Assembly: GCA_000091205.1 (NCBI GenBank)
Contig: AP006499.2
From: Cyanidioschyzon merolae
Taxonomy: Eukaryota
Strand: one strand, 5' to 3'
Length of the DNA stretch: 64,000 bases
The notes under the pieces were generated by a model. It saw only the letters and a list, made by a program, of their open reading frames with translations. It was not told the origin of the DNA and did no database searches. Made by a program: the position numbers and the translations under genes. Of the stretch, positions 38,235 to 56,689 are shown piece by piece. The number at the start of each line of letters is the position of its first letter. The first letter of the stretch is position 1.

Positions 38235-39596
38235 GAATGAATCACGGAACTGCTCGATCTAATCATGTCTTGCGAATTTTTCCAAACTTGTATCGGTATG
38301 CAGCCTCGACTTTCCAAGTGCAGCGATACTAGTTTACGGGTTCATTTGTCGATTTTAGGATGATCGGTCGTGGTTTCGGTGTGGTGCATGCGACTATCTG
38401 GCGCTGGATCTCGCTAGGTGACTGGAATCAAGATCATTGGCGGCATTCGCGACTAAGGGCTCGTAACATAACCGACATGATCACAGCGTTCAGACGTGCA
38501 AGCCTCCAGGATTCTCCTTTTATTACGTGTTGTATACGCGAATCATAATCTTCATTCACGTTTCCGATCTTTCTGTTTCAAGGCAAGTTGGTTGTGCAGC
38601 AATGCGCTCCGCTGGATTGGCGATGAAGGGATCTCGACGTCGTCTCATTACGACTTGCAGAATATGTTATTTCAATCGCTCACTGGACTTGCAAACTCAA
38701 ATAAGCGATCCCTGGTCGAAAGACAAACACCCTAATCTTCGCGCCCGTCGACGAGACGGTATGCGGCACCAGCACCCTGATACCTCGCACGGGACAGGCT
38801 GCCAGAGGCTCCCGAGTCGCCTGTTCGCAAGCGCAGAAAAGCGCCCTGGACGCTGGGTTCAGTCGTCGCAGCGACCGCTGCCGGTGTAGCGCTCGTCACC
38901 GCTTTGCATGGAGTGAGCGTGCATCGCTCAATATACTTCGACTTGTCCTTCGAGCGGCGCTTTCCTTCGGGTAGTTGCTTCATCGTGGACAACATCGCGC
39001 TCCACGTACCGTCTACCGAGAGGAACAGCGTACGCTTCCATGTAAAACAGGCGGCGTGCTCCCCGAGAGGATCGCCCAGCACAAGCCCGTGATCGCTGCG
39101 TGCGACACTGGGCTCGGAAATGGAGCACGGCATCCAAGGCAGCCTTCTTCATTCGTCAAGGGCATGTACTGAGCGACGAGGCAAGCGTGCGCACGCCACT
39201 GGGTGCTTCTCCAGTGAGAACGTACGGCGTACGTGTGAGAGCACCTGATCACAGTTTCGTGTTACCGCTGCGAAGGACGCCACGAGTCTCTATGAAGACA
39301 AAATGAAAATCGCGAGCGAAGCAACGTTTCCAATTCCAGTCTGTGCATGGAATGCGTTGTCAACAGCGCGCAGCGACGGCTTCGGGGCCTGAACGCTGCC
39401 ATCACCATCGGTCGACTGCTGGCATCGAAGCAGGCGGGACACCAGAGACCAGCGTATATCAACATCTGATGCAAGAACTAGGAACAAGGACCCGTCGCAG
39501 AGGAGGCCCGCAAAGGCCGGTGTTGATGACGGGCGGAAGCGACGCTGACGTTCGATAGTACGTCCGAGTTGGAGGACCCGTTCCATGTTATTTTGC
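38235..39596 (+). repeat. 1.36-kb dispersed repeat, copy 1 (about 99% identical to copy 2 at 55328-56689, same orientation)
   Basis: The alignment holds a constant offset of 17,093 bp from start (cacggaactgctcgatctaatcatg) to end (gaggacccgttccat..ttattttgc), with about 10 substitutions. The supplied ORFs are duplicated pairwise: 38527..38889 with 55620..55982, 38732..39133(-) with 55825..56226(-), and 39290..39586(-) with 56383..56787(-). GC is about 45-50%. Confidence 0.9.
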
Positions 39597-39745
39597 TATC
39601 GGTTGAGTATCTCCGAATCGGTTCCCTATGAAGCAACGACGTGCCCGGCATTGGCGGGATCTGGAGCACCAGATGCGCGCACGACTTCACTGCGTCATCG
39701 TATCCTACATATGGCGCGCTGCGGTGACGTCGAGGGTTCGCTGCA

Positions 39746-40492
39746 ATGAACTCGCAGAAAACGATAGATGAAGAGGAACTGCGTATCCCCCGGGATGATC
39801 CAAGTGAGTGGATCAGTTCAGGGTCTGTAGAAAGGTCGACAGTGCTTTTTATCTGGAGTTCGGCGCCCGCGGAAACGCTGGCGGCTAGTCGCAGTGTTTA
39901 TCGTGCGCTTCAGGCGCAGAGGCAACTGCAGCCGGAGCTACGACTGCTCTGTTTCGATTTGCATGAACAAAGATCAAAGCTCTCTAAGGTTCTTGAGACA
40001 TACAAGGTTGGTGCGGTGCCAACTGTGCTCGCGTTCCCGGCGCACGCGCATCAACCCAGCGACCGTGTCGAGGGTGTCTACCCGGCACGCGTTGGCGCGC
40101 TGGTAGAACAGCTGGTTCACAACTCGGCTGCGGCGGATACGAAGACGGTGCGGCAGCGGGTTGAGAAGATGATTAGCGAGCACCCGATACTGCTTTTTAT
40201 GAAAGGAACGCCTGAGCGGCCTCGGTGTGGGTTTAGTCAACAGATCGTGCAGCTTCTTGTGGGGGATCTCAAACTGCCACGTGCCAGTCTTGCCACATTT
40301 GACGTACTAACTGACGAGCAGGTCCGTCAAGAGGTGAAAGCATACAGTCAGTGGCCGACATTTCCCCAACTTTACGTACGAGGTGAGCTCATTGGCGGCC
40401 TTGATGTCTGCCGCGAAATGGCACAATCTGGCGAACTCGCGGCATTACTGGCATCCGCGACGCGCGATGAACACGGAACAACTGGTCCTTGA
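39746..40492 (+). CDS. Monothiol glutaredoxin with an N-terminal thioredoxin-like domain (Grx3/PICOT-type)
   Basis: The Grx domain is ISEHPILLFMKGTPERPRCGFSQQIVQLL ... WPTFPQLYVRGELIGGLD, with a CGFS active site. It is preceded by a Trx-like domain (VLFIWSSAPAET...). Confidence 0.8.
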   Translation: MNSQKTIDEEELRIPRDDPSEWISSGSVERSTVLFIWSSAPAETLAASRSVYRALQAQRQLQPELRLLCFDLHEQRSKLSKVLETYKVGAVPTVLAFPAHAHQPSDRVEGVYPARVGALVEQLVHNSAAADTKTVRQRVEKMISEHPILLFMKGTPERPRCGFSQQIVQLLVGDLKLPRASLATFDVLTDEQVRQEVKAYSQWPTFPQLYVRGELIGGLDVCREMAQSGELAALLASATRDEHGTTGP

Positions 40493-41931
40493 GGTTAGCG
40501 CTGCAGACAACGATTGTTTCAGCTATGGTTAGTATGGGCAGGGTTGCGCGTATGGTGACTCTGCGGACGAGTGCAGAGAAAGCGGACCTGAGTCCAAGAT
40601 TCCCGGACTCTGTGCACGAACGAAGCCAAAACCTTCGCGGAGCGGCCTCACTGGTGGACACTCGTGAACCGCATATTTTCTGAATCTTTTGACGGTATTG
40701 ACCACCTGGAAGATGACCGGCATCGCGTGAATCGATGCGCAGGATTCCATAGTATTTTTCCAGATAGAATACTGGGGCACGCAGATTCATACAGCTGGCA
40801 TCTCATGCAGCGTGCCTTAGGGTGATGTCGTGCAGTGCTACAAATTCCGAGTGCGTGCTGCGGAGATCTTCGTAAGCTGAAAGAGGCAACGCGATTTTGC
40901 TGGAACAGGGGTTCCATGGAAAATCGAGATATCGAGCACCTGCCCTGCCGATGATGGCACTGGCCCGCCTTGACGTGTTCTTGGAACACTGCGACGCCAT
41001 TTGATCAGGATTGCGTAAAGAACACGCTGGAGCTCTGAACCGCACTGATCGCTGCTGAAATATCGCCCTGGATTCTGGGTCTGTGGTTTCGGCCAGAACG
41101 ATCGTCGATGGAAAATTTTCCTCGTGATACTACCCCAGAAGCAGTCTTAAATGCAGAACCCTGATGCCTGGGCTAACTGTACAAGCGCGCCTTTCATTTT
41201 TGTTCCTTCGTCCCGCTCGTATTCAACGAATGGAGTCTATTCCGTGGACCGAAGAGAGATGGTGGGAAATTTTATACTATCATAACGTACTTGCGAAGAA
41301 TGGCATTCACTCTACAAGTCACTCATTCCGCGATCATCAGTGGGTTATTGAGCAAAGCTGCTCGTCGTCCTTGTTCTCGTCGTCGTGCTCTTATCACGGA
41401 TTCTGTTCTACTCTGTGCCCATCGTCACCTACTCGTCAATCTTTTTAACTCGATATGTTTTCTTAAAAATAGCATAACAGAATCCATGGGATGTGAAGTG
41501 TCCACACCGTTGATATGAACCGCGATGAACGTACATGAATGGACAAAGAAGTACGCACACTGTCATAGGAGACCGTCACGCAGTGAACTACTCAATATCC
41601 ATCTAGTATTAGAACGCGAATGCGTATCCCAGGAGGCAGGCGGCATCGTTTCGCTCGAGGAGACCTCGTTCAGGGGAAACGGTAGCGCCGCACAGTGGTA
41701 CGCAAAGAGGGGCAAACCGCTGTTTGTAAAACAGGTACTCTCGAGCACTCCAACAACATTAGCCCTTGCGGATTTTCAATCGTAGAGTTACGACGAAATC
41801 GCCAAATGAGCAAGATCGTTCAGCACCACTCCATTAACTGAAGCACGCTTCATGGTGCCTGCTTCTCAAAGTCTTCTCGCTGCCCGTATGACACTGCCGC
41901 TTTCCAACACTCGAAAGCAGCCAGGGAGTGC

Positions 41932-43453
41932 GTGGCTCAGATCGACATTGACAAGCACTTCGTGCCAGCGTATTCTGCCTGGTTCAATACAAACCAATGT
42001 ATCTTCTCTGTTGTCATACGCCATTTTGATGTTCTAAGACGCATGGACGAATCGTTTGCAACCGTGGCGTCGCTCGTCATCAAGTCGTTGTGTACCTTTG
42101 CCAGCCGTGAACTACGGTGCTGCCCCTGTGCTCTTGCGGGGCAGCAATCGAAAAGATTTGCCTCGGTCAGTGGATATATGCTGGTGACGGCGACGGTGAC
42201 GAGCTTGTAGTTAAGGCGTAGTGGATATACAAAGACGAACGGAGAGCTTCGGTGATGCTGCCAAACTAGTACTTCTGAATTCCGCGAAGAAATCAGGTAT
42301 AGAGCATGTCGATTACATGCGTGTCGCCCCGGCACGTAGAGGAAGCAGGTTACTATTGCACTAGTCTCCGCGAGCAACAAGGAAGCGTTCTCACGACCTC
42401 GCGCAGAGCGCTGGCAGAGCTTGATGAAGATTTCTCGCTTAGAGGGAGGAAGTGGGAAGGGTTTTTAAAGAATGATAGAGGGCAACAGAGTATCGAGCTG
42501 CAAAGCCTTTGTCAAAAATTGGCATGTGTCGCGCGACGAGACTCATGTTCAGGTGTTCAGGATAGATGAAGAGCAAGACTTTATGATCAGTGTGGATCCC
42601 GGATTCAACAACTTAATCGCTGTAGCTGTCCCTCTACATCCAGAGGACAGAGCTGAAAATCTGAACGGCGTGAAGTTGTACCAGATCAACTTTTCCAGGC
42701 CTGGGTACCAACAAGAGTCGGGTATGGCAGACTCAAGGCGGCATACCAACAACTTGAATGATTGTGTCAGGACTGGTCTCGACGCTGTGTGCACCGTGTC
42801 GTGCAGCGTGCGCTGCTTTGCACGCTTCATTTAGAGAGTACATCAGCGTAAAAGTGGCTCGTGCGGACGATCTTTGGCTGGAGTATGCGACTTCGTGCTA
42901 TGACCGCCAATGGATTGGGGTTTACTGAGGCAGGGAACGTGCGTCCGCCAACGTCTTCAATGAGTTGGACAAAGAAATGACCGATACGTATTATCGTTTG
43001 GCGTCAGCCTATCACGCAAGACGTGCTGAGGCGCGAAAGGAGTGCATCTCTGATCCTTTGATGAGCGCGTTCAACGAGTGCACGAATCGATGCTGCACGA
43101 CTCGCGTCGATGAGTTCAGGACTGCATTCATGCATCAGGGGCGCGGCCGCACATTGGAGTAGGCAGAGAAGGGGCGCGTGAAGAAGAGACGGACGCACGA
43201 GGTGGTATGCGGTAAGCTGATCGAACGTCAGGTGACGAGGGAATCAAAATTGAGAGGCTTCCCATGTCGTACTTCCACCGGCAAGCATGCGCGCAGGCAC
43301 TCTCTGCACCAAAGCTTGAAAGCCTCGATCAACCTGCGAAATTGTTCCGTGCTTCCGGAGCGCCCAGCGCCTTTGTGTCGAGCAGATAATCGAGGGAATC
43401 GTTTATTGGTGAGGTCGGGGATTTTGCTGACACACACGGAATACTTTCGATAA
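41932..43453 (+). pseudogene. Decayed TnpB/Fanzor-like (RuvC-fold, OMEGA-family) ORF remnant, copy B, in an AT-rich gene-free island (about 40.5-43.9 kb)
   Basis: The ORF chain is on the plus strand and interrupted by stops and frameshifts. 
- ORF 42472..42834 carries the RuvC-I-like motif RIDEEQDFMISVDPGFNNLIAVAVP (canonical hhGIDLGxxNLAxxA). 
- ORF 43178..43453 carries VVCGKL...FPCRTSTGKHARRHSLHQSLKASINLRN, which is Cys-containing with an NAAxNI-like tail. 
- The RuvC-I to RuvC-III spacing is about 265 aa. 
- Region B is homologous at protein level to copy A around RuvC-I. Confidence 0.35.
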
Positions 43454-43931
43454 AAACAGTCAATGGCTACGAGACGTGTCATTGGATTCCCGCCTGTGGC
43501 AAAGCACAAATGCAGCACAGTACGGTACGGTCAGCGGTCCATCAGGCTTGGAGTGCCGTCTAAATGCATGAGTATGGACCGGAAACGCTTTTCCTGGGCT
43601 ATCGGAGAACGTGAACGGTGTTCCATTATTCGATATTACAGAGTAAAGCACCATGCCAATCCACAGGCTATCTAATGAGTGAATTCATTATGCGACGCTG
43701 GTCAACTGGAAAGCAGCCCGCAAAGTCCGCCTCTGGTGCGAGGAGCCGTCAATTCAGACACAGAGCACTCGATTCAAAAATCTGGCAAAACTTTTTTCGG
43801 AACGATCCATCCACGAAAGATTGCTCGGAGCATGCAGCTTGTTGGCAATCGTCCTTCGCAGGAATCGGGGAAGCAGCGGCTGCATCCGGCAAATGCATTG
43901 CTACTGATTCGTTCCGAATCGCGCTTGACCT

Positions 43932-44852
43932 CTATCGATTCGCTTGGTACGTATGCCGCATTTGCTTCGTCTCCGGCGCTTGGAGATCTTGTGCGGAGGG
44001 AGAGCGTTTCAATCCTCTGGCAAAAGCACTTCGGATATCAAGGCCGGGTTTTTTTCCGGGCTCATCGCGTCGAGGCTCTATCAATGACGGACCTTCGTTC
44101 TTGACGGAAGACACTGTATTCGATACAGGGTGCCAAACGATTTGCTCAGTCGGCTGCAGACAACGATGCACCGCCACACGAGCAGGCACCTGCTCAACGT
44201 CGAGCCATGCCTGGAGCTGATCCTCGGTTTCCAAAAGTGCCGGCATGCGGTTATGCATCCACTGAATTTTGTCGCTGGCTGCGACAGTAAAAATCGCAAA
44301 TCGATTCATCTCTGTCTCCTCAACGAACAAGGCGGCCATAAACAACGGTCGGTCGATCATGTCGTGCGCGTTCCGAGGCGCCAAGTGGTCCTTGCTCTCT
44401 CTCTTTGTAACACCGTGATAGATAAAATAGGGTATTCGGGATGCTTTCGTCATTGTTTTGATTTTACCCACGTCCTGTTGCTCACCAGGGGCATCTGCAG
44501 CGCTCCACTCGTAAAACCCGTTCGCAATAACCACAGCGCGCTGACCTGCATCTAACGCTGACCGGAAGCTCGCCTTTTCAAGAGCAGTCTCCGCCCGCAC
44601 GTTGATGACGATTGGAGGGCTCTCACCCTTACCAAAAGTTCGCCCACGAATCGGAAACGCCCAGCGCATTGGTTGCAGAACACGCTCGCCTGAAACAGTG
44701 CGCAGCAGTGGTACCGTTTGCTGCGGAGCTACATTGTAGCGCGGCTGGTAGTGGTAGCGCTTTTCCTGGTCCTTCGCGTCAGCCCAGCGAGTTGTTCCAG
44801 CAACTCGTTCAAGCTGTTCTCGAGAGTAGTACAGCGCGAAGCGTCCGCACAT
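43932..44852 (-). CDS. HMCES: SRAP-domain protein (HMCES/YedK family abasic-site DNA-protein crosslink sensor)
   Basis: The protein starts MCGRFALYYS, giving the catalytic Cys2. RYNVAPQQTVPLL and the rest of a SRAP-domain-length sequence are present. Confidence 0.8.
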   Translation of the reverse strand: MCGRFALYYSREQLERVAGTTRWADAKDQEKRYHYQPRYNVAPQQTVPLLRTVSGERVLQPMRWAFPIRGRTFGKGESPPIVINVRAETALEKASFRSALDAGQRAVVIANGFYEWSAADAPGEQQDVGKIKTMTKASRIPYFIYHGVTKRESKDHLAPRNAHDMIDRPLFMAALFVEETEMNRFAIFTVAASDKIQWMHNRMPALLETEDQLQAWLDVEQVPARVAVHRCLQPTEQIVWHPVSNTVSSVKNEGPSLIEPRRDEPGKKPGLDIRSAFARGLKRSPSAQDLQAPETKQMRHTYQANR

Positions 44853-44956
44853 GCACGCGAGCAGCGCTTTTTAAAAGCACTGCGAAGCAAGGCGCCTCCA
44901 GCACACGCCTAGGCACGAACGGAGACAGCGTCGCGGAGATACGCGCATCACACGGC

Positions 44957-44993
44957 TGTGCGTGCGTGCGTGCGTGCATGCGTGCGTGCACGC
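44957..44993. repeat. (GTGC)n tetranucleotide repeat in the 110-bp divergent intergenic region between HMCES (-) and the aminotransferase (+)
   Basis: The run is tgtgcgtgcgtgcgtgcgtgcatgcgtgcgtgcacgc. It probably lies in a bidirectional promoter or 5' UTR, because the annotated aminotransferase ORF start is likely too far upstream. Confidence 0.8.
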
Positions 44994-46638
44994 CAGAACC
45001 CTGCCAGATCTCCAAATGGCGCAAGGCGCACGCTGCGCGGCCACCGCCGCCATAGCACTCAACGGATCGTATGGAATCGGGCAATACGCGGCAATACGCT
45101 TTCGCCATACACATCGCGCATTCACTCGCAAAGATCTTTGCAGTAACTGGCAATCCCTTGCAGCCATGAGGACGATTCACGAGCGTAAGGATGGAACGTT
45201 TATGACACCTGCTTTCATCAGCAGCTCTCATGTATTCCTGTCGGATCCTTGCTTTTGGTCGAGTGGAAGGGTTTCAGGGAGACGGCACCGCAACGCAGTC
45301 TACTCGAAGCCCCAAAGTGGCACGGTCCGCCTGCCAACCCGCCTCGTGCTCGAAGACGCGCCGAGTCGGGAGAAGACTACCCAGTTTGATCGCGCTGAGT
45401 TTGATCGCTATGTTCAAAATACGTATGCGCGGTATCCGCTGACCCTGGTGAGTGGCCGCGGCTCAAAAGTCGTCGACGACAACGGGCGAACGTACATCGA
45501 CTGTGTGGCGGGAATCGCGACTTGCTCCCTAGGCCACGCAGATCCGAGGCTTGTTTCTGCAGTGTCGGACCAAATTCGTCGCCTACATCATGTGTCGAAC
45601 TTGTATTATACAGTAGAGCAGGCAAGTTTAGCCAAGTGGCTTGTTGAGCACTCCTGCGGCGACCGCGTGTTCTTCTGTAACTCGGGCGCTGAGGCCAACG
45701 AGGCAGCGCTCAAGCTGGTACGGAAGTACGCGCACACCCAACTCGGTTTGGATGTGCCGGTGGTGGTCACGGCGATGAACAGCTTCCACGGTCGAACGCT
45801 GGCGACCATCACTGCAACAGGTCAGCCGAAGTACCAGCGCGGCTTCGAACCGTTGATGCCGGGATTTCGATACGTTCCCTACAACGACGTAGCTGCACTG
45901 GAACGCGTTGTCAACGAGCTAGAGCAGATGCGGAACTCTTGGTGGCGACGGATCCAAGGTGCACCTCGAACTGGCTTGGCAGCGATTATGCTGGAGGCGT
46001 TGCAAGGCGAAGGGGGCGTCATGCCAGGAGACCGAGCCTTTTTCGCTGCTGCTCAGCGCATTTGTGAACGAACTGGTGCATTGCTGGTGCTCGATGAGGT
46101 ACAGGTTGGCATGGGGCGGACAGGTAAGCTCTTTGGCTTCGAGAATCTCTCCATACAGCCGGACATCTTCACGCTCGCCAAGGGACTTGGCGGCGGAATA
46201 CCTATCGGGGCCATGATCTGCAATGCCCGCTTGCGCGATATCCTGCAACCTGGCGAGCACGCCTCGACCTTTGGCGGGAATCCGCTGGCCTGTCGTGCGG
46301 GTCTCGTGGTCACTAGGGCGCTGGTCGAGGACAATGTGCTGGAGAATGTACGCGCTCGCGGCGCTCAGCTTCGTAACACGCTCGAGTCCCTGGCTCGTGC
46401 GTACCCTTCGGTGGTGCGCGAGACTCGTGGCTGGGGCCTCATTCAAGGACTAGAGTTTCACGAGCCGTGCTCACCACAATTTGTCCAAGCTGCGATGCGT
46501 GAGGGCGTCCTGCTAGTGCCAGCAGGCCCGCGTGTTGTTCGCTTCGTACCACCCCTGACGATAACGGAAAGCGAGCTCGAAGAAGCCATTCAGGCGACGC
46601 GGCGAGCTTTTCGAAATCTATTCGGATCCGAGTCCTGA
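44962..46638 (+). CDS. argD: Acetylornithine aminotransferase (class-III PLP aminotransferase, arginine biosynthesis), with an N-terminal targeting extension
   Basis: LVSGRGSKVVDDNGRTYIDCVAGIATCSLGHADPRL...FFCNSGAEANEAALKL...LVLDEVQVGMGRTGKLF...DIFTLAKGLGGGIPIGA matches ArgD/ACOAT throughout. The real start is probably at an internal Met around 45.0-45.2 kb. Confidence 0.85.
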   Translation: MRACVHACVHARTLPDLQMAQGARCAATAAIALNGSYGIGQYAAIRFRHTHRAFTRKDLCSNWQSLAAMRTIHERKDGTFMTPAFISSSHVFLSDPCFWSSGRVSGRRHRNAVYSKPQSGTVRLPTRLVLEDAPSREKTTQFDRAEFDRYVQNTYARYPLTLVSGRGSKVVDDNGRTYIDCVAGIATCSLGHADPRLVSAVSDQIRRLHHVSNLYYTVEQASLAKWLVEHSCGDRVFFCNSGAEANEAALKLVRKYAHTQLGLDVPVVVTAMNSFHGRTLATITATGQPKYQRGFEPLMPGFRYVPYNDVAALERVVNELEQMRNSWWRRIQGAPRTGLAAIMLEALQGEGGVMPGDRAFFAAAQRICERTGALLVLDEVQVGMGRTGKLFGFENLSIQPDIFTLAKGLGGGIPIGAMICNARLRDILQPGEHASTFGGNPLACRAGLVVTRALVEDNVLENVRARGAQLRNTLESLARAYPSVVRETRGWGLIQGLEFHEPCSPQFVQAAMREGVLLVPAGPRVVRFVPPLTITESELEEAIQATRRAFRNLFGSES

Positions 46639-48732
46639 ACTCCGGAATGGTTCGATTCAGTAGACGGGATATACCATTGTTCGCCGTCAGAGCTGCAGCG
46701 CGCTTCGTGGTGTACCAACGCCGACACCGGTGCGTCCCATGCGCGCGCGCAACGCAGCGCGCAGACTGCTATGCAAACGAGCAAACTCCCGATTCTGGGC
46801 CCGCAGCGTTTCGATCTCCCGGCAGAGCTGAGGGAGGATCCAGCGTTCGATGAACAGACACTCTGTACGATATCTCTGAGCGACCGCGCGCCAGTAGAAC
46901 AGCTCTGTAGAATTTGTTTGGCATCTCGAACAAGACAGCTCCATGGCGGATCCGTGTAAACCACCAGTTGCACTTTGGTCAAACGCCGTCGTCGAAACGC
47001 GTGTTGCTGCAACTGCGGCCTGCCGTCTGTGATGACACGGATCTGGATCCGTGAAGCATGCGTGCATGCGTGCACGCACGTATACGTACATAAATGTATA
47101 GATTCTGACGTGCGTGGCAGTCATCCATTCACAGATGCACCTGCACGCATACGTGCATACACGTACTCACTCATGCGTTCAAGCATGCCCGCCGCGCAAC
47201 ATTCCCCCAGTGCCTGTGCTCAAAACGAACCCATGTTGGTAAAGACAACATTCTTTGTCATTCGCTCTGTTTCGCCGGGGATCCTCGCACGTCACCTTTG
47301 CAAGAAACCGTCGATGTTTGACAGTGCCCACGAGACCATGTCTCTGGATGCTGCACCAGTAACCGCAGTGATGTTAACGTTGGCCAGTCGCCCGACAAAC
47401 CGCAGATGCGCTTCTCGGTTCGTCCGTACCGTACATTTCCGTTTCATGCGTGCAGCCTATCCCTTGCGTTATTGCCGGAGACGATCCTTTTTATCAGGAG
47501 AGCCGTTCGCATCCATTCACAAGCGCATGCCCAACGCAATCTGCGTTCGCGTTCTGTTCATGATGAACACGCGCTTCGGGCTGGGACCGCGCGGCGCCTG
47601 GGGGTTGCGCTTAACGTTCACGTTCTGCTAATCGCCGCTAATCGCAGGATTCGGACGGATGCGGGCACCACCATGGCAATGGAACATCGCTCGCTCGTCG
47701 TATACGGTAGCAAAACATCACCACTGAATTGCTTGCTTCGGAGCGAAAGAATTTGTTTTGACGTCCGAATTCGCCAGAAGGTGCCATTTAGAACATGTAA
47801 GCGACTATGTCACTGTAAACACCACGATACCACAAACCCTGTGAGATCCGAGCAAGTTCGCTGCCTCCTATACGTGTCTTTGGGTGCGCTCATGGCTCAT
47901 TGTCGGCCTCCGCGTGCAGGGCGGTCACAGAGCAAGATTCGAAGCAGCACCAGTGGCATTCGACTGAGCGTAACAAACCACGATATGCTTCCGTCCGTCC
48001 GGGAATGGTGAGGCTCTGGCCCCACTTCGCAATGCAAGGTGCAGGAAACCAACGGAGGAACGGAGCTCGCGCGCCAGCAAGAATTAGTTCTCCACATGAG
48101 CCTCCAGGCGTTCGCTGTGTTTTTTGTCGAGTCCATGGGACTTCGGCCACCGGTTGAAAGTATCGGGTGAAGGCAACGCTTAACGTGCACCATGATCGGA
48201 GATATCGTACATAATTTGGAGGTTTGCATCGTTTTCAAGCGGGTGCCTTTGAAGCGAGCGCTATCAACAGCCAGTAACGTGGCCAGCGGCAGCTCAGATA
48301 ATCTCCCGGGTGCCTGGTGCTGTTCGGGGAACCCACAGCACCGGGTTTCATCAGCACATTGTGGCCGTCGTCGAGAGACCAAGCAGCGGCACCAGTCCAG
48401 ACACGGCCGCAAGTAGCCGAGTCCGCGCTGCGCACACGCAACCGCACTCGTTCGGGCATTGACGGGCGACTCGGGATGCGTATGGCAACCAGCGAGCTCC
48501 TCCTCGGGCTGCGTACTTGCTTGCACTGTCAAAGAGTTCCCTCAGAGCGCCATGACATTTTGAAGACTGTGTGTATGTGAATGTGTGTGTGTGCTGAATG
48601 AGAGGCACGCATCGGTGGCCTCTCGGCGCACAAAGCAACCAAACGATGCATCCATGTTCTCGCCGCGAAGAGACGCGTCACCCAATGCAGCGCTATGATT
48701 GGGCATGTTTCAAAGACAACGCACTGACTGCT

Positions 48733-49869
48733 TCACCTCTGCTCTCTCGATAACTCCATGAGACGCTGAGTCGTTTGTGGAAAGGTTGGGCGCTCATCGT
48801 CAACTGCGATCCGAGTCGCCTCACCAGGCGATGCGCAGAAGAATGTCTGCCAAGGTTCTGGAAAGACTCGGAAAAGCAAACCATTTGGTAAGGGCTTCAA
48901 GTAGTATATGGGCTCAAATTGCTCAAGATAACGCTTGCGCAGGGCAGTTAGCCGTGGATAAAACAGAGGTGGATAGTAGTTGCTTCGGAGGCGGTCCATG
49001 TTTCCATTTAGGACGACGATGCTTGCGTCGGGATACAACAACGCTGGTCGCTCCAGTTGTAGCCATTCGTCTATGTTAAACCCGGGCTGGACGACGAACA
49101 CAAGTGCTGGCGCCTCGACCTGTTGCAGGAACGCCGGCCTCTCGTACAGCGGCAGTGCTGAGAGCGTGAACGTATGCTCACTGCTTCCATAGACTTTTTC
49201 CGCTATTTTGGCCTCGGCCACGTCCGGAAACACCAAGTGCAGGCGCTTGCGAAATGAAGCTGCGAAAGGTTTGATGATTTCCCGCGCGTGCGAAGTATTG
49301 GCGTCTAGGATCCTCGACAAGGCAGCTGTGGTGTCCCGAACTGCTGGAAAAGAAACTTCATAAAGCGCCGGCGAGCGCGTTTTGGTTTCAGTAGCCTTCG
49401 ACAGCGCATTCTGAACCTGCCTATGCAATGATGCAGTGTCCTTCGGTAAACTTGTGTATTGACAAACCAGAAACATCAAGCGGCGGGAAACGCGTCCGCC
49501 ATGAAGCGCTCGAGGTTTGCGCGCTGCAGGCGCAGATCCAGCGCGTCGGGGCCAGGTGCGCTGCGGCCACGACACGTAGGTGTCCTTAAAATCTAATTTA
49601 ATACAATTGTATCCAATATCCCTTTCCACTGCGAATCGCCATGCGCCGCACCGTACACAACGGATGCAGGCCAATGACTGCGTATCGGTTACGCAGGGTA
49701 TCTCGAGCAGCGCGTGCTTCAACGCAAAGTGTGTTTCCCAGTACTTGGTGCCGTCTGAGGCACTCGAGCGTATAGTAGGTGCCCGCGAGACGCTGTATGC
49801 GCTGTGTTTCGTGGTGAAGGGCTGGTTAACGGCCTTGATAGACGTTCTCACTGTCTGCTGGTTTCGCAC
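48733..49869 (-). CDS. Hypothetical protein, 378 aa; function unknown (possibly a plant/algal DUF-type protein)
   Basis: It is a long GC-rich ORF. It forms a divergent pair with the downstream hydrolase gene across a 110-bp spacer. Confidence 0.35.
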   Translation of the reverse strand: MRNQQTVRTSIKAVNQPFTTKHSAYSVSRAPTIRSSASDGTKYWETHFALKHALLEIPCVTDTQSLACIRCVRCGAWRFAVERDIGYNCIKLDFKDTYVSWPQRTWPRRAGSAPAARKPRALHGGRVSRRLMFLVCQYTSLPKDTASLHRQVQNALSKATETKTRSPALYEVSFPAVRDTTAALSRILDANTSHAREIIKPFAASFRKRLHLVFPDVAEAKIAEKVYGSSEHTFTLSALPLYERPAFLQQVEAPALVFVVQPGFNIDEWLQLERPALLYPDASIVVLNGNMDRLRSNYYPPLFYPRLTALRKRYLEQFEPIYYLKPLPNGLLFRVFPEPWQTFFCASPGEATRIAVDDERPTFPQTTQRLMELSREQR

Positions 49870-49979
49870 GAGCGCATCGAGTCGGCAGGTGGCCAGGAGC
49901 GCGGCAGCCGGAGCTTCACTCGCGAAGATGCAGCGCGGTTACCTGTTCTGGAGATAGGGGGACGTCCAGGAACAACAGA

Positions 49980-51536
49980 ATGTCGCGTATGGACCGGGCA
50001 GCGCCGCAGCTCGTCGGAGCACCAACGGAACAGTCACAAGGGGGCGACGGAGATTGGAAGAAGAATCTATCCGGCAAACTGCAAGAGGCGGGTCCTTGCT
50101 ATGCTCGACTTTTGGGCAGCTCTGAGCGATGCCTGTGGCACTATGAACTGCTGGGAACACCGGGCGCAGCTGCAACGGTCGTACTCCTCCCAGACCACCT
50201 GAACGGGGCAGCGGGGCTCCGTGCACTCGCCTCGGTCGTTGCTCGCTGCGGATATAGAGTTTTGCTTTTAGACTGGCCTGAGCATGTGCATACGGTGGAG
50301 GCTTTTATTAAGAGTCTCGAGAAGCTGCTGGAAGTCCTGGCTGCGGCGGATGCGGTATGTAGAAGCGCGCACTTTCTTGGTGTCGGCCTGGGGGCTCTTC
50401 TTGCGCTATCTTTCGCTCAGCATTGCCCAGACCTTGTTGCGTCTCTCATGCTTGCTGGGGTACTTTGGCGACGCCAGACTCTATCGAGACTGCTTTCGCC
50501 GTGGTCCTTGGCTGGTCGAGTTTGCGCAGCCAACAGCTTGCTACCTCGCTGCATTTTCGAGGAGCCTCTCCTCGAGTCTGGGCTGCTAACCTTTGCCAGT
50601 ACAACGGAGCGTCTCCAAATGCAGCTGCTCATAAGGGAACGCATACGGCAGTCGACCAGAGGAAGCCTCTGTACGCGCTTGTGCCTGATGCGCTCAGGCA
50701 AGGACCCAGGGACGATTCGCTTGCCCGAGTCACGAATATCGCTGATCACGTGTCTGCCGCGCAGTTGGGATGCGGTTTATTTTGCCTCTTCATCAGGTCT
50801 GGGTCGGTCACAGAACCTGCGTTGGCCCTTCACCGATACGAAACTCCAGCACAGGGTACTGCAGTCGCCGTGGGTGCAAAGCTACGAGGAGACAACCCCA
50901 GTCGACGGAACCCACGCTGGTGGCCTCCTGAGACGTGCTTTTTGTGCTTACTGGAGATCCTGGCGACTCGGCAGCGGCGACCGAGATTCTGCAGCGCATC
51001 CAGGACATGGACCTGACACAGCAGCGTTCTTGCTCCTGTTTCCCCGAGCCCGCCGTGCGTATCTGAAAGGCGCTTTTACGAACTATCCTTTCCTGTGGTC
51101 CGCAGATGCCTTTATTCTGCATGTGCTGGTGCATCTACGTCGCCAACTGGATCCACCGCAGCAGTTGCTTCTGCTGCAGCGGTACCGATCTCTCCCTTTG
51201 GGGCATCTTAATACGATACCAGAAAAAACGGATGCAGCTCCCATGAGACCACTGATGCACCAACAGACGAGCGTTTCAAACGCGAACGCGGAACCTAACC
51301 ACGACACGAGATCATCGGACTGGAACCACGAAGACTTTATCAGGATCGTCAGCCCCGCGTCAGCCACAACCTCCTGGGCGACCGTTTACGCTTCAGCTGG
51401 CTCGACGACGCTCACGGATGTCACCCAAGATATTTGGTCTGAGGATGCCAACGAGACAGAGGTTTCATCGAGCTGTGAGTCCACCTGCTCCACCACCAGT
51501 CGCGATGTACGCATCATGCGAGACGCTCTAGCGTAG
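49980..51536 (+). CDS. Alpha/beta-hydrolase fold protein, maspardin (SPG21/ACP33)-like
   Basis: VVLLPDHLNGAAGLRALASVVARCGYRVLLLDWPEH...HFLGVGLGALLALSFAQHCPDLVASLMLAGV is collinear with maspardin (IFLPPVSGTADVFFRQ...GYRVIALQYP...HLFGASLGGFLAQKFAEY). The C-terminal half is low-complexity. Confidence 0.6.
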   Translation: MSRMDRAAPQLVGAPTEQSQGGDGDWKKNLSGKLQEAGPCYARLLGSSERCLWHYELLGTPGAAATVVLLPDHLNGAAGLRALASVVARCGYRVLLLDWPEHVHTVEAFIKSLEKLLEVLAAADAVCRSAHFLGVGLGALLALSFAQHCPDLVASLMLAGVLWRRQTLSRLLSPWSLAGRVCAANSLLPRCIFEEPLLESGLLTFASTTERLQMQLLIRERIRQSTRGSLCTRLCLMRSGKDPGTIRLPESRISLITCLPRSWDAVYFASSSGLGRSQNLRWPFTDTKLQHRVLQSPWVQSYEETTPVDGTHAGGLLRRAFCAYWRSWRLGSGDRDSAAHPGHGPDTAAFLLLFPRARRAYLKGAFTNYPFLWSADAFILHVLVHLRRQLDPPQQLLLLQRYRSLPLGHLNTIPEKTDAAPMRPLMHQQTSVSNANAEPNHDTRSSDWNHEDFIRIVSPASATTSWATVYASAGSTTLTDVTQDIWSEDANETEVSSSCESTCSTTSRDVRIMRDALA

Positions 51537-52973
51537 ATGTCTGGAAAGGACTCTGCTTTCACGTGCTTCTGTTTAGATGGCGACAACGATCCAAGCGGTC
51601 CCGCATAGCAAAATCCAGCTAAAGACGCTTCGCCCCTGTTTCATCGTCTAGATGGTGCATCTTGTGCTCGAATCCGAGCTGCTAGAGGTTTCGTCTTGAA
51701 GAAACGGAATCTGCTTCGGGGTTTAGCGCAGGATCCGAGAGCGCCCTTTGAAAGGGTGCGCGGTGCCCGTGATGGGCCTCATCGCTCATCTGTTCTCGGC
51801 AGACGATGCCGCGAAAGCAGCTTGAACCGGGAAGGTTCCCCGGGTAAGCACGCCATCCTCCAGAGCTCTTACGAAATACTCGAACAATTCCCGATACCTT
51901 TTCTCAAAGACATGTGATTTCGCTTGAATTGGTTATACCTGGAATGCCCTCAGTGTTTAAAGCGTACGCGTGTCGAGTCCTGTCGCAAGTACCAGCCCGG
52001 CCCCTGATATCGCAATCTGTTCCAGATGAATTGGGTCTGCATCCTGATGATGCACAGTCTTTCTGTGCTGGAGTGTATCCCTGGCGTCATGCCTGGATCA
52101 TAAGCGCATTCTAGTCCTGCAGAACAGTTCCATGGGCGGCAGTTTCTCTGGCACTGAGGCATTTCAGGTAGCCTGCGAGATGCCCCAACTGCTATTCCTT
52201 TTGCTGGAATCGAAACGCCGTGGAACAGTCTTTTTCGATTCATTCTGCAGGGAAGCTTGCTCGTAGTCGCTTCAGGGTGCACCAATACTGACGTCATGCG
52301 TAACCTGGCAGCGAATCACCCGAAAACATTTGAGTCACCAAAGCGTCTTTCTGTGTTCGAGCTCCAGTACGAACGGTGCGCTCTGGTAGCTCCAAACGTG
52401 ACACGAGTCCCTGGTGCTTCGCAGCGCCTCCGATAACTCGTTGACCGCAATAAACTATGTAACAGCGAGGAACGCGCCTCGCTTCGGAGGTATTCACAGA
52501 AGCAGCTCGAGGAGCCCCGGGTCCGGGTCCGGCTTTGCGATATCACGGCAACTGCATCGTGATCCTTGCCTCTACTCGAACACAACCCTTTTCCCAGGTA
52601 CGATTCAATGTAACTATCAAGACCTCGGTTGCGACCCAGACTTGAGTATGAAAGTGCCTGCGGGTGCAAGTATATGCGCCTGGTTGACGTTGTTCCCAGC
52701 GCACCGTACTGCCTCCTCGACAAAAGCGTGCTTCAAGGGTCTCGAGCCAAGTGCCGGTGGCGTCTCAGACTGGAGATAGCCATCGCGCTGTTAGGGATCC
52801 CGACTCAGACGCACCCAACCCAAAGCCTACAGACACCGAACTAGTGGCGCCCGAACGCAACAACGAGGATCTTTGGTACCTCGGGTCGACGCGCTTGCAC
52901 CGCCCAAGAGAGGGCCGCAAGCCTGGCAACTGCGTTTCTTCCCGTCTGTGCGCGATCAGGTTTCGAGCTGTGC

Positions 52974-55211
52974 ATGAGTACACTGCTGATACCAGCGTTT
53001 GCAATAGCAGTCGCAGGACTTGCTGCGCTTCGTTGGAATACAGCGAAACAGGTGCCGCATCAAGTCGGAAGGCGCCCGAACGGAGCGCTCCGTCTACCAT
53101 TAGGGGAAACGAACAACGGCGAAGCGAACGACAGGTCTGGTTCCCCGGTCTTATCTCGCCAGGACGCTCTTCAACAAGCGAGAGCCGAAGCAAGCGCCTA
53201 TGCAGCTCAAGAACCGGTTCAAGCGTTTGCACGAAAGGTTCGCAGTTTGCGACCGGAGGACCTTCTCGACCGCTTTGGCCCCAGTGCATCGCTGCACTTT
53301 GGCACAGCGGGTTTACGTGAACCCATGGGCCCTGGATACAACCTTTTGAATACAGTGGTTGTTGTTCGAGCGACTCGTGCGGTACTGGGGCACCTTGCCG
53401 ACACCCTGGGCTGGGAAGCGCTGCGAACGCGTGGCATCCTTATCGGCTATGATGCGAGGCAGCACTCGGAAACCTTTGCGCAAGCTGCTGCCGTGGTTTG
53501 TGCATCGCACCAGGTTGCCTTTGCTCTACTCGATCGTGTCGTGCCGACACCACTGGTTGCCTTCGGGGTGGTTCAACAACAACGCTGTGCTGGAATCATG
53601 ATCACGGCGAGTCACAATCCGAAGGAATACAACGGTTACAAACTCTATATGGAAAATGGCTTGCAGATCAGTGCAGCCGTTGCCAAACAGATTGAGGCTC
53701 GGATGCGGTCCGAGGCGTCCTCGCCCCGAGAACGACAGGCCGAGCTTCTTTTCGCGACCAAGGAGCTGGCCTCGTTACCTCGTCAGTCCGTGGAGACACT
53801 CTGGCAGGCCTACGAACAGCGCATTCGCCATGAACTTTATGCGCCGATGAGGTTCGATAGCGCTCGTCTTCAGATCGTCCATACTGCATTGCATGGTGTG
53901 GCCGACGATTACCTCAGGCGACTTTTTGCGGCCTTTGCATTACCGACCTATACGCCGACGGCGGCACAACAGAGCCCCGACGGTGATTTTCCAACGGTCC
54001 CGGTTCCGAACCCGGAAGAGGGTGCTGCAGTTCTGCGTCTGGCTATGCAGACTGCAGAGCAACTTTTGCGATCGAACAAGACGAATGCTGTGGTGGTTTT
54101 AGCGAATGACCCAGATGCAGATCGGTTGGCAGTGGCAGAACTAGCACCGCAAACAAATCCTCGGTGGCACATTTTCCACGGTGATGAAGTTGGTATCCTA
54201 TTTGCCTGGTGGATGCTGCAGCAGGTCGAGAAGCTTGGTAAGCAACGTGCTTCCACGGAAATGGTCTTCATCAACAGCGTTGTTTCCTCTCAGATGCTCG
54301 GAGCATTGGCTGAACACCAGCACAAGCTGCGCTGCCGCTGGATACAGCATTATCCCGGTTTCAAATGGCTTATGGAAGTGGCGGTAGCGCAAACGCGACC
54401 GCAACAGCAAGTGCTCCTTGTCTACGAGGAGGCGCTCGGCTATGCGCTCGGCGGCCTGCGTTCGGGTACGTTGCCGGTAAATGACAAGGACGGCATCGCC
54501 GCAGCGATCGTCGCAGCCCAGCTGGCTTACTTTTGCCACCAAAACAGGACTTACGGCTCGCTGCAGGGACTTCTCGAGAGCCTCTACCGCCAGTACGGTC
54601 TCTACCTCCAGCACTCTGGATATTTACGCTGTCGAGACTTTCGCACATTGACGCCTTTGTTTGAGCGCATTCGTCAACGCCTCGCGTCGGGCGAGCTGGT
54701 GCTCTTCACCGCCGACGATGGATGCGGAGGCGGCAAACCGTTACCGCCGCGACGGTACCAGATCCAAAGCGTCTATGACTGGACTCGCGGCTACTATTGC
54801 GCGTATGGCTGCGAGCCGGTGCCGCTGTCGCTACCGCCTCAACCCAAAACGCACTTTATGACGTTCTGCATCAGAGAGAGTGATGAACATAGGCTGAGCC
54901 TTCAGAGACAGCGGCGACAGCAGCCGAGGCAAACGCCTTCCGGAGACCGCTCGAGAACGCCATCGTCTCCGTCGACACCGATGAAGCCTGCGAGTCCTTC
55001 GCTCCCCGCAGACGCGGACCTACGAATAACTCTGCGGAACAGCGGCACAGAACGGAAACTTAAGTTCTACTCAGAGCTCCATGTAACTAGATACAGTCGC
55101 TTAGAAGACCGCGATGAACTGCGAAAGGCTCTTGATCGCGCAGTTCGCGCGTTCATCGAGGCGTTCCTGCAGCCAGGCCTACACGGCCTGGAGTATGGAA
55201 CAGATCGTTAA
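52974..55211 (+). CDS. Alpha-D-phosphohexomutase, PGM2/PGM2L1-type (phosphoglucomutase/phosphopentomutase), with an N-terminal extension
   Basis: The active-site motif is GIMITASHNPKEYNGYKLY. Further matches are ILIGYDARQHSETFA, VVLANDPDADRLAV and the C-terminal domain 4. The length is 745 aa. Confidence 0.8.
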   Translation: MSTLLIPAFAIAVAGLAALRWNTAKQVPHQVGRRPNGALRLPLGETNNGEANDRSGSPVLSRQDALQQARAEASAYAAQEPVQAFARKVRSLRPEDLLDRFGPSASLHFGTAGLREPMGPGYNLLNTVVVVRATRAVLGHLADTLGWEALRTRGILIGYDARQHSETFAQAAAVVCASHQVAFALLDRVVPTPLVAFGVVQQQRCAGIMITASHNPKEYNGYKLYMENGLQISAAVAKQIEARMRSEASSPRERQAELLFATKELASLPRQSVETLWQAYEQRIRHELYAPMRFDSARLQIVHTALHGVADDYLRRLFAAFALPTYTPTAAQQSPDGDFPTVPVPNPEEGAAVLRLAMQTAEQLLRSNKTNAVVVLANDPDADRLAVAELAPQTNPRWHIFHGDEVGILFAWWMLQQVEKLGKQRASTEMVFINSVVSSQMLGALAEHQHKLRCRWIQHYPGFKWLMEVAVAQTRPQQQVLLVYEEALGYALGGLRSGTLPVNDKDGIAAAIVAAQLAYFCHQNRTYGSLQGLLESLYRQYGLYLQHSGYLRCRDFRTLTPLFERIRQRLASGELVLFTADDGCGGGKPLPPRRYQIQSVYDWTRGYYCAYGCEPVPLSLPPQPKTHFMTFCIRESDEHRLSLQRQRRQQPRQTPSGDRSRTPSSPSTPMKPASPSLPADADLRITLRNSGTERKLKFYSELHVTRYSRLEDRDELRKALDRAVRAFIEAFLQPGLHGLEYGTDR

Positions 55212-55327
55212 AGCAGGAAAGTGCTCGAAACGTTCATAATTCATCTGGATATGTTTTTAGTCGCTTTAGTAGGTTTCCGCTGGGATCCGAGAAACGCACA
55301 CGCATACCCTACACTTGTGTCGGATTG

Positions 55328-56689
55328 AAATGGAGCACGGAACTGCTCGATCTAATCATGTCTTGCGAATTTTTCCAAACTTGTATCGATATGCAGCCTC
55401 GACTTTCCAAGTGCAGCGATACTGGTTTACGGGTTCATTTGTCGTTTTTAGGATGATCGGTCGTGGTTTCGGTGTGGTGCATGCGACTATCTGGCGCTGG
55501 ATCTCGCTAGGTGACTGGAATCAAGATCATTGGCGGCATTCGCGACTAAGGGCTCGTAACATAACCGACATGATCACAGCGTTCAGACGTGCAAGCCTCC
55601 AGGATTCTCCTTTTATTACGTGTTGTATACGCGAATCATAATTTTCATTCATGTTTCCGATCTTTCTGTTTCAAGGCAAGTTGGTTGTGCAGCAATGCGC
55701 TCCGCTGGATTGGCGATGAAGGGATCTCGACGTCGTCTCATTACGACTTGTAGAATATGTTATTTCAATCGCTCACTGGACTTGCAAACTCAAATAAGCG
55801 ATCCCTGGTTGAAAGACAAACACCCTAATCTTCGCGCCCGTCGACGAGACGGTATGCGGCACCAGCACCCTGATACCTCGCACGGGACAGGCTGCCAGAG
55901 GCTCCCGAGTCGCCTGTTCGCAAGCGCAGAAAAGCGCCCTGGACGCTGGGTTCAGTCGTCGCAGCGACCGCTGCCGGTGTAGCGCTCGTCACCGCTTTGC
56001 ATGGAGTGAGCGTGCATCGCTCAATATACTTCGACTTGTCCTTCGAGCTGCGCTTTCCTTCGGGTAGTTGCTTCATCGTGGACAACATCGCGCTCCACGT
56101 ACCGTCTACCGAAAGGAACAGCGTACGCTTCCATGTAAAACAGGCGGCGTGCTCCCCGAGAGGATCGCCCAGCACAAGCCCGTGATCGCTGCGTGCGACA
56201 CTGGGCTCGGAAATGGAGCACGGCATCCAAGGCAGCCTTCTTCATTCGTCAAGGGCATGTACTGAGCGACGAGGCAAGCGTGCGCACGCCACTGGGTGCT
56301 TCTCCAGTGAGAACGTACGGCGTACGTGTGAGAGCACCTGATCACAGTTTCGTGTTACCGCTGCGAAGGACGCCACGAGTCTCTATGAAGACAAAATGAA
56401 AATCGCGAGCGAAGCAACGTTTCCAATTCCAGTCTGTGCATGGAATGCGTTGTCAACAGCGCGCAGCGACGGCTTCGGGGCCTGAACGCTGCCATCACCA
56501 TCGGTCGACTGCTGGCATCGAAGCAGGCGGGACACCAGAGACCAGCGTATATCAACATCTGATGCAAGAACTAGGAACAAGGACCCGTCGCAGAGGAGGC
56601 CCGCAAAGGCCGGTGTTGATGACGGGCGGAAGCGACGCTGACGTTCGATAGTACGTCCGAGTTGGAGGACCCGTTCCATTTTATTTTGC
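55328..56689 (+). repeat. 1.36-kb dispersed repeat, copy 2
   Basis: See copy 1. It begins about 115 bp after the PGM2-like stop and ends about 690 bp before the COQ6-like gene 3' end. Confidence 0.9.

Follow-up and report, generated by a model that had tools for sequence, protein, structure and literature searches.

Two direct repeats that lie 17 kb apart in the window (the whole 64,000-nucleotide stretch of Cyanidioschyzon merolae contig AP006499.2 analyzed here) are, in the reading to which we give a probability of roughly 0.7, a pair of dead transposons that has been kept alike by repeated non-allelic gene conversion without crossover, and does not owe its likeness to recent movement. It is variation among natural strains, common to both loci, that argues for exchange between them.

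Extent and composition of the repeat pair

The near-identical tract shared by copies 1 and 2 (Table 1) spans 1,354 bp, with the offset fixed at 17,093 bp throughout, and contains 10 substitutions, which corresponds to 99.26% identity; BLASTN of copy 1 against copy 2 gave 98.98% over 1,367 bp. These values bear out the first-pass annotation, which had described near-identical direct repeats with this offset and about 10 substitutions. Identity between the two loci rises abruptly from ~25% to 98-100% at position 38243 and drops after 39596. To the left of the tract a weak likeness continues for 27 bp more (17 of 27 positions match, P ~1e-4), which makes the homologous unit a little longer than the near-identical tract. 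Local alignment of the 300-bp flanks of the two copies gave no similarity past this 27-bp edge, which rules out a larger segmental duplication. Note that the ends given for copy 1 in Table 1 were set by homology to the inverted termini of an older relative, copy B.

The GC content of the unit is 54.5%, equal to that of its surroundings, and the earlier figure of 45-50% is thus to be replaced. As had been stated, the unit has only short ORFs, the longest of 133 aa. Searches of the unit with Rfam, at both gathering and permissive thresholds, and with Tandem Repeats Finder returned no RNA family and no tandem repeat; these empty results exclude rDNA, a known RNA or a satellite as the identity of the unit, the first and last of which had been named as ways in which the annotation might fail. 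The 8-bp inverted termini reported for the repeat hold at 7 of 8 positions in copy 1 but at only 6 of 8 in copy 2, and the right one is not conserved in older members of the family. No target-site duplication, for which a check had been suggested, was found around copy 1 or copy 2.

Older relatives of the repeat within the window

The repeats belong to a family, R, with at least five relics in the window (copies 1, 2, A, B and C). Copies A, B and C are ~57-59% identical overall and ~67% identical in their best-matching segments. Copy B is bounded by perfect 11-bp inverted repeats, TCAGACTGAAA, at 29728-29718 and 28372-28362, which fall exactly on the ends of the family homology; the terminal inverted repeats of copies 1, 2, A and C are decayed or give weak matches only. 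Copy C has an internal deletion of ~580 bp that joins 9024-9152 to 9159-9804. No TA target-site duplication is demonstrable for copy B, the flanks of which are TT...TA, and copies 1 and 2 are without matching flanks; decay could have erased such a signal.

No third near-identical copy was found in the 64-kb window, in a scan of JGI metagenomes for the left end, or in a 90% protein cluster. In particular, the left-end DNA pattern matched at the copy 1, copy 2 and copy B loci only, and the cluster built on the ORF that spans the right end held just two locus types, of 98 aa and 134 aa. Accordingly, of the young, dispersed, non-autonomous family entertained at first, the non-coding transposon-like repeat survives but the youth does not, as the other copies in the window are ancient.

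A transposase-like relic frame

The family consensus has one frame with 4 stops, compared with 10-18 in the other frames; this frame extends over the element, and 4 stops or fewer occurred in 0 of 2,000 shuffles. All of the frameshifting indels in copies 1 and 2, at least five in number, are common to both. When translated, the consensus gave a sole match in Pfam, to DDE_3 (PF13358; E=7.5e-4, bit score 19.8, cut-off 28.6), and a sole match in NCBIfam, to the IS630 model NF033545 (E=0.0034, bit score 16.9, cut-off 100, with positions 18-238 of 299 aligned collinearly), both being sub-threshold matches made with a reconstructed consensus. Pfam had no match for any of the unit's six raw frames, nor for alignment-guided translations of single copies. 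The frameshift-corrected consensus had no match at E<=0.01 among 5.8 billion protein clusters, where neither an intact transposase nor a homologous protein was found; a profile search of PDB sequences with the consensus was not significant, nor was an hhalign comparison with Sleeping Beauty (E=0.78). The old copies show no codon-position substitution bias, which suggests that they diverged mostly as pseudogenes. Taken together, the unit is most likely a dead cut-and-paste DNA transposon of the IS630/Tc1-mariner type, the superfamily being the one to which these weak matches point.

Host genes between the copies

The DNA between the copies bears host genes and a TnpB-like relic, as the first-pass annotation had it, although the ORF-type genes number six and not five; the statement that it is not the interior of an LTR retrotransposon stands. 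The genes include argD and other single-copy housekeeping genes, and because the interval carries argD a 17-kb deletion would probably be lethal. (The SRAP and glutaredoxin proteins differ between strains by single residues.)

Each repeat copy lies ~2.3-2.7 kb from a TnpB-like relic, a proximity that had been flagged as perhaps meaningful. The two islands are inverted relative to one another, though copies 1 and 2 have the same orientation, and different host genes lie between each island and its repeat; the proximity therefore looks like coincidence. Moreover, nhmmer detected nothing in the islands that resembles the R unit. Note that the TnpB/Fanzor label of the islands draws on the literature and on a RuvC-like motif that is visible in them, searches with Pfam, NCBIfam and PDB sequences having given no confirmation.

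Table 1 Features of the R repeat pair, its older relatives and the intervening genes (positions in the window)
Feature	Position	Strand	Evidence
Copy 1, R family, family-level extent	38227..39604	+	nhmmer and MAFFT alignment with other copies
Copy 1, near-identical (putatively gene-converted) tract	38243..39596	+	10 differences from 55336-56689; no fixed copy 1/copy 2 difference across strains
Copy 1, putatively unconverted left edge	38227..38242	+	family-homologous; 6/16 positions differ from copy 2
Transposase reading-frame relic (probable) in copy 1	38290..39290 (approximate)	+	broken by at least 5 frameshifting indels
Copy 2, R family, family-level extent	55320..56697	+	BLASTN, nhmmer, alignment
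Copy 2, near-identical (putatively gene-converted) tract	55336..56689	+	10 differences from copy 1; strain comparison
Old copy A	31350..32665	-	nhmmer E=1e-101; alignment
Old copy B	28362..29728	-	1,367 bp; nhmmer E=2e-93
Old copy C	9024..9804	+	nhmmer E=6e-40 and 5e-6; alignment
Host-gene interval, 15.7 kb	39605..55319	.	Pfam, NCBIfam; gene order same in independent contigs
Glutaredoxin	39746-40492	+	
Fanzor/TnpB-like relic	~42300-43500	+	
SRAP/HMCES	43932-44852	-	
argD-type aminotransferase	44962-46638	+	passes TIGR00707 argD cut-off
DUF1995 protein	48733-49869	-	
518-aa ORF	49980-51536	+	
PGM/PMM	52974-55211	+	

Both copies in independent assemblies and natural strains

The C. merolae 10D genome, of which the window is a part, was finished telomere to telomere (PMC1955436). 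Both copies are also present on two independent metagenome contigs, Ga0078972_1001189 (100 kb) and Ga0504774_000048 (57 kb), from relatives ~99% identical to 10D, and all four unique repeat junctions recur in more than 10 samples. The genes of the interval keep their site in every strain examined.

We compared the two loci in ~15 natural strains recovered from metagenome contigs. Twelve of the 20 polymorphic sites of copy 1 have the same two alleles in copy 2 (0.46 expected by chance, P=2e-16), a count that would be inflated if interior alleles in short-read contigs are assembler blends of both copies, only flank-anchored sites and the 10D sequence being free of this risk. Six of the shared sites lie within ~125 bp of unique flank, and there the copy is assigned by flank-linked sequence. 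There is no fixed difference between copies 1 and 2 within 38243-39596; the strain alignment has its nearest ones at 38235 (left) and 39597 (right), and positions 38240 and 38242 also separate copy 1 from copy 2 in every strain compared at the left edge.

Each copy is closest to the other copy of its own strain and not to its counterpart at the same locus, although blending by the assembler is possible at interior sites here too. In Ga0078972, copy 1 and copy 2 are set apart by 1 site, whereas 17 sites separate its copy 1 from 10D copy 1. The two copies of Ga0504774 are identical (0 differences). Yet both strains are distinct from one another, and from 10D, at the two loci alike, and 10D copy 1 shows 13-17 differences from the remaining copy 1 sequences. 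Two more strains have copies that diverge at ~10 sites within their first 377 bp (~2.7%), which suggests that homogenization is episodic. The shared polymorphisms, the lack of fixed differences in the tract and the grouping by strain together argue for repeated gene conversion between the loci. C. merolae is proficient in gene conversion as well as in homologous recombination (PMC3764038).

Alternative explanations

The high identity of the copies could mean instead that a young non-autonomous family is at work, one copy having been mobilized in trans and inserted 17 kb away, with the 1% divergence recording the time since the jump. That the unit is transposon-derived, with element-like boundaries, fits such a scenario, which we nevertheless consider quite improbable: the searches described above turned up two near-identical copies only, without flanking target-site duplication, and no intact transposase was found. 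The outermost 16 bp differ at 6 positions, though a fresh insertion copies its ends faithfully, and the left-edge differences listed above are the same in every strain compared there. Moreover, a jump before the strains diverged predicts clusters by locus, whereas the copies cluster by strain and have 12 polymorphisms in common. A single duplicative or template-switch event that overwrote one old relic ~1-3% divergence ago, with no exchange since, would account for diverged edges beside a near-identical interior, and the ~2.7% difference seen in two strains could be its baseline divergence. Such an event predicts fixed differences and no shared polymorphism, however, whereas we observed 0 and 12, respectively, and strains have different haplotypes, each identical in both copies; we regard it as unlikely. 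The strain data likewise speak for repeated exchange and against the recent segmental event that had been proposed as the source of the high identity. Two further readings are extremely unlikely. Duplication of one real copy by the assembler, also raised at first, would explain the high identity and nothing else; it conflicts with the finished genome, with the independent contigs that have both copies or each of the four junctions, and with the distinct diverged edges and 10 internal differences of the copies. The direct orientation and the size would suit the two LTRs of one retrotransposon, or two solo LTRs, but the interior consists of host genes, the ends are not TG...CA and have no flanking target duplication, the unit has a DDE-transposase-like relic frame, and copy B has inverted ends. 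LTR retrotransposons were not found in C. merolae (PMC1955436).

The pair is, as had been noted, a substrate for non-allelic recombination, and it is conceivable that the 17-kb interval is structurally polymorphic, either because crossover deletes it and releases a circle or because it is cargo of the kind carried by composite transposons. Short-read metagenome contigs matching a deletion and a circle do exist: the 51-kb MEGAHIT contig ERZ27247235 k141_849115 links the left flank of copy 1 to the right flank of copy 2 by way of a single repeat, and Ga0080006_1132399, at 17,214 bp, would by its length be one period plus ~121 bp with both ends inside the repeat. The short-read assembly graph of the normal arrangement holds exactly these two paths, however, and the contigs are thus no proof of either product. 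The ENA sample of the 51-kb contig also has an interval contig with both repeat junctions; the ends of the 17.2-kb contig fall at polymorphic sites 39489/39491, as expected of a graph branch point, on which ground we rejected it as a closed circle. As the interval bears argD and other single-copy housekeeping genes, and both repeats are dead with decayed outer ends, we think real structural polymorphism improbable. A bolder version makes the pair a working recombination module, in which crossover excises the 17-kb block as a circle that persists or re-integrates in natural populations. If so, the two contigs would be the "left flank-repeat-right flank" and "interval plus one repeat" molecules, and the long homogenization of useless relics would be a by-product of the excision cycle or be maintained by it; this is a speculative idea that we hold to be decidedly unlikely.

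Discussion

The favored reading, homogenization by non-allelic gene conversion, can be put as a sequence of steps. The ancestral element would have been a cut-and-paste transposon of ~1.37 kb that carried a single transposase gene between short inverted ends. Homologous-recombination machinery may then have repeatedly repaired or overwritten one copy with the other as template, the exchange tracts being confined to shared sequence and holding the interior at 97-100% identity. The outermost 16 bp on the left and ~8 bp on the right probably escaped exchange and drifted apart. Crossover between the copies would delete or circularize 17 kb including argD and other housekeeping genes, and in a haploid alga such products would be purged by selection, which would leave only conversion outcomes to be seen. 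Should the diverged edges be a true measure of how old the pair is, conversion would have to have gone on for a very long time; the alternative to such persistence is that one template switch took place between two relics that had diverged before it.

C. merolae is a minimal model eukaryote that has been described as almost transposon-free. The locus suggests that very old transposon relics make up part of its intergenic DNA, and that efficient homologous recombination acts on native dispersed repeats and can keep a dead pair alike for long. If recombination keeps relics alike in this way, high identity between repeats would be an unreliable clock for recent transposition or duplication in this alga. 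For genome engineering, such repeat pairs may be places where ectopic repair or rearrangement occurs. In addition, metagenome contigs of wild relatives can tell a young copy from a converted one without new sequencing.

One known system for comparison is CMe-1A, or "WSV486-like", a 3.2-kb interspersed element of C. merolae that bears Fanzor1/TnpB (Nozaki 2007, Bao & Jurka 2013). R is likewise a decayed interspersed repeat family of the same genome, but its unit has no sequence similarity to CMe-1A, and the CMe-1A relics here are mutually inverted with different host genes between. With IS630/Tc1-mariner elements R shares a length of ~1.37 kb, within their 1.3-2.4 kb, one frame that fills most of the element, and the order of the consensus, in which a helix-turn-helix-like N-terminus precedes a D...D(N) motif region; the short terminal inverted repeats, perfect in copy B but decayed or weak in the other copies, would fit as well. 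R differs from them in that its consensus matches fall below curated cut-offs, the region of the third catalytic residue is not recognizable, a TA duplication cannot be demonstrated, every copy is dead and the searches turned up no intact relative. As in bacterial composite transposons, two direct elements of the same family bracket a block of genes; unlike in those, the R copies are inactivated by shared frameshifts and have decayed outer ends, the cargo is a set of conserved host housekeeping genes whose site does not change among the strains examined, and the pair shows no sign of movement.

Concerted evolution of dispersed repeats through non-allelic gene conversion occurs, for example, in the Ty/delta elements of yeast, and also in duplicated genes and segmental duplications of animals. 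Like paralogues that evolve in this way, the R pair shares polymorphisms, has 0 fixed differences, clusters by genome, and has a homogenized tract with sharp edges inside the homology. The R pair departs from the usual cases in that its units are non-functional relics 17 kb apart in a compact and mostly haploid algal genome, and in that variation among natural strains, as recovered from metagenomes, supplied the evidence.

The repeats are a true feature of the genome

Copies 1 and 2 of the direct repeat were compared with the offset held at 17,093 bp; at 38243 their identity rose from a background of ~25% to 98–100%, and it returned to background after 39596. Within this 1,354-bp tract the copies differ by 10 substitutions, bearing out the first-pass annotation's description of two near-identical 1.36-kb direct repeats at constant offset with about 10 substitutions (BLASTN gave 98.98% identity over 1,367 bp). 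The G+C content of the unit had been put at 45–50%; we measured 54.5%, the same as in neighbouring sequence. The unit contained no tandem repeats and had no match in Rfam, even at permissive thresholds, which rules out rDNA, known RNAs and satellites.

An assembly artefact, another explanation raised initially, is excluded, since the genome of strain 10D is finished telomere to telomere (PMC1955436) and the arrangement recurs in other assemblies. In particular, we used proteins of the window to retrieve metagenome contigs from JGI, ENA and Logan; these are 98.2–99.5% identical to the window and derive from wild relatives. Both copies and the interval of host genes between them were found in the 10D order on Ga0078972_1001189 (100 kb) and on Ga0504774_000048 (57 kb). 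Many further contigs carried one of the four unique junctions each or ended inside the repeat, as short-read assemblies do at true repeats.

The unit is the relic of a DNA transposon

An nhmmer search of the window with the repeat unit as query recovered three additional copies, A, B and C (see the table), which are 52–60% identical to copies 1 and 2 and to one another over the whole MAFFT alignment and ~67% identical in BLAST segments. The ends of copy B are perfect 11-bp inverted repeats (TCAGACTGAAA) that lie exactly at the limits of family homology and enclose an element of 1,367 bp. One frame of the family's majority consensus contains 4 stop codons and the other five contain 10–18; none of 2,000 shuffles got down to 4 or fewer. 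Individual copies have 3–6 stops in the alignment-guided frame, and substitutions between copies showed no codon-position bias, which argues that the copies decayed largely as pseudogenes. Measured against the family frame, at least five frameshifting indels are common to copies 1 and 2, and neither copy can therefore encode a transposase.

Each profile library returned one match for the consensus translation: Pfam gave DDE_3 (PF13358, E=7.5e-4) and NCBIfam the IS630 family transposase (NF033545, E=0.0034). Both matches fall under the curated cut-offs; the NCBIfam alignment is collinear from the N-terminal region to the second catalytic aspartate. Individual copies gave no match, and a large protein search and comparisons with PDB and by hhalign were negative. 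We conclude with confidence that the unit is the relic of a small inverted-repeat DNA transposon, and tentatively assign it to an IS630/Tc1-mariner-like group. (Nozaki et al., PMC1955436, mention eight class II elements of C. merolae that weakly resemble bacterial transposases.)

Features of the window
Feature	Position	Strand	Remark
Copy 1, family extent	38227–39604	+	
Copy 1, tract	38243–39596		
Copy 2, family extent	55320–56697	+	
Copy 2, tract	55336–56689		
Old copy A	31350–32665	−	nhmmer E=1e-101
Old copy B	28355–29725	−	nhmmer E=2e-93
Old copy C	9024–9152, 9159–9804	+	nhmmer; internally deleted
TnpB-like islands	~42.3–43.5 kb, ~59.0–62.2 kb	opposite	mutual homology
Homologous part, first island	42565–43336	+	43336–42565 aligns with 59183–59946
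Homologous part, second island	59183–59946	−	
ORF with RuvC-I-like motif	42472–42834		ISVDPGFNNLIAVAV
Three-fold old fragment	31067–31351, 23055–23276, 61874–62154		
More pieces of the island near 62 kb	4879–5138, 5253–5354		
Tandem duplication	17992–18179		97-bp segment, direct, 96% identity
Low G+C, skewed stretch	59001–61000		
Brix-domain gene	29963–31156	−	
tRNA gene	13007–13139	−	Rfam RF00005, 48.9 bits
DUF4535 ORF	37904–38068	−	54 aa; Pfam match
PGM/PMM protein			BAM81990.1, exact protein match, strain 10D
327-aa protein			BAM81984.1, exact protein match, strain 10D

Alleles are probably exchanged between the two copies

We aligned the copy 1 and copy 2 sequences of 10D and about 15 assemblies (site numbers refer to copy 1). 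Copy 1 sequences were polymorphic at 20 sites and copy 2 sequences at 31, and at 12 sites the same two alleles occurred in both copies (0.46 expected, P=2e-16). There were no fixed differences between the loci inside the tract, and sequences clustered by strain rather than by locus. For example, copies 1 and 2 differ at one site in Ga0078972 and at none in Ga0504774, whereas four sites, in both copies alike, distinguish one of these strains from the other. The copy 1 of 10D, the most divergent sequence of the entire set, differs from other copy 1 sequences at 13–17 sites and has five substitutions (38331, 38352, 38658, 38956 and 39020) absent from every other copy 1 or copy 2 sequence. In principle, short-read contigs could blend interior alleles between the copies. 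However, six of the shared polymorphisms lie within ~125 bp of unique flank (on the left 38296, 38340 and 38363; on the right 39491, 39559 and 39587), and in one sample the strain-specific alleles are identical in both copies on junction contigs that were assembled separately (L020 and L001). A pattern of this kind is what concerted evolution by non-allelic gene conversion characteristically produces. In two strains (ERZ27249350 and Ga0080006) the copies differ at ~10 sites within the first 377 bp; exchange is therefore episodic, with tracts ranging from a few hundred bases to full length. Homologous recombination, and gene conversion of introduced DNA, are known to be efficient in C. merolae (PMC3764038).

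With the element termini placed by the ends of copy B, the near-identical tract is slightly shorter than the element, stopping 16 bp short of its left end and about 8 bp short of its right end. The left 16 bp are still family-like in both copies, yet 6 of the 16 positions differ between them, and those of the differences covered by a comparison of strains were constant in every strain compared. In the strain alignment, fixed between-locus differences start within a few bases of the tract, at 38235 and further left and at 39597 and further right. Six assemblies (e.g. L040, L041, L046, L050–L052) have a left-end haplotype at the equivalents of 38249–38283 in copy 2, and it never occurred in copy 1, as expected if near-edge sites escape conversion. 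This suggests that near-edge changes escape exchange and that the identical domain erodes inward.

Alternative explanations

A young dispersed non-autonomous family had also been listed as a possible explanation. We searched the JGI metagenome collection, including a sample whose alga gave a 100-kb contig, with a left-end DNA pattern designed to match copies 1, 2 and B; it matched only those three loci. The 90%-identity protein cluster of an ORF across the right end had two forms only: the copy 1 type is 98 aa long and the copy 2 type 134 aa. Neither a target-site duplication at the flanks of copies 1 and 2 nor similarity of the flanks beyond the element was found. Together, the pattern matches, the two-form cluster and the missing duplication speak against such a family.

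Two contigs look like reciprocal crossover products of the repeats, as a 17-kb deletion and its circle would yield: the MEGAHIT contig ERZ27247235 k141_849115 (L017/L031) joins the left flank to the COQ6-side flank across one repeat, and Ga0080006_1132399 (L041; 17,214 bp, one period plus ~121 bp) has an 'interval plus one repeat' layout and, judged from the lengths, starts and ends inside the repeat. However, exactly these paths are present in the short-read graph of the normal arrangement. The ERZ27247235 sample also has an interval contig with both repeat junctions, and the 17.2-kb contig ends at polymorphic sites 39489/39491, a branch point of the graph. Moreover, the interval encodes an acetylornithine-type aminotransferase (exceeding the TIGR00707 cut-off), a glutaredoxin, an SRAP/HMCES protein, a DUF1995 protein and a PGM/PMM, the loss of which should be strongly selected against in a haploid phototroph. 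A real structural polymorphism is thus unproven and unlikely.

Other repeats and genes in the window

The TnpB-like islands are inverted relative to each other and have no similarity to the repeat unit. Pfam, NCBIfam and PDB sequence searches recognised neither, and a RuvC-I-like motif is visible in one ORF. They fit the described C. merolae 3.2-kb interspersed element with a Fanzor1 (TnpB-like) relic. That each repeat copy lies near an island had been flagged as something that may or may not be meaningful; copies 1 and 2 are co-oriented and the islands are not, and the genes between island and repeat differ, so the similar spacing is best taken as coincidence amid dense old repeats. Over the minus-strand island, G+C falls to 49–50% and both GC skew and AT skew are strongly negative. 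One occurrence of another, three-fold old fragment adjoins the 3′ end of copy A and one lies at the island edge near 62 kb. The Brix-domain gene is bracketed by the co-oriented old copies B and A, a second gene-between-direct-copies layout; these are 59% identical with no sign of homogenisation.

In the tRNA gene, which ARAGORN did not report, the variable arm is long and a 53-nt insertion interrupts the anticodon loop; C. merolae is known to have unusual tRNA introns. The DUF4535 ORF lies 160 bp left of copy 1, and many metagenome contigs have it as a called ORF; judging by the NCBI accession numbers of the neighbouring genes, which run on across it, it may be unannotated in 10D.

Dating and significance

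The 0.7% divergence of the copies in 10D does not give the pair's age. Two histories are suggested by the diverged edges: either the pair is about as old as the remaining family and was homogenised throughout, or one old relic was once overwritten from the other and later kept in step; the edge positions are too few to choose between these histories. In practice, the chief lesson is that transposition in the C. merolae genome is not dated by repeat identity. Overall, the repeat pair is a real feature with an ordinary mechanism; it adds a new, well-supported case in which a known process acts on the remains of what is probably an IS630/Tc1-like transposon.
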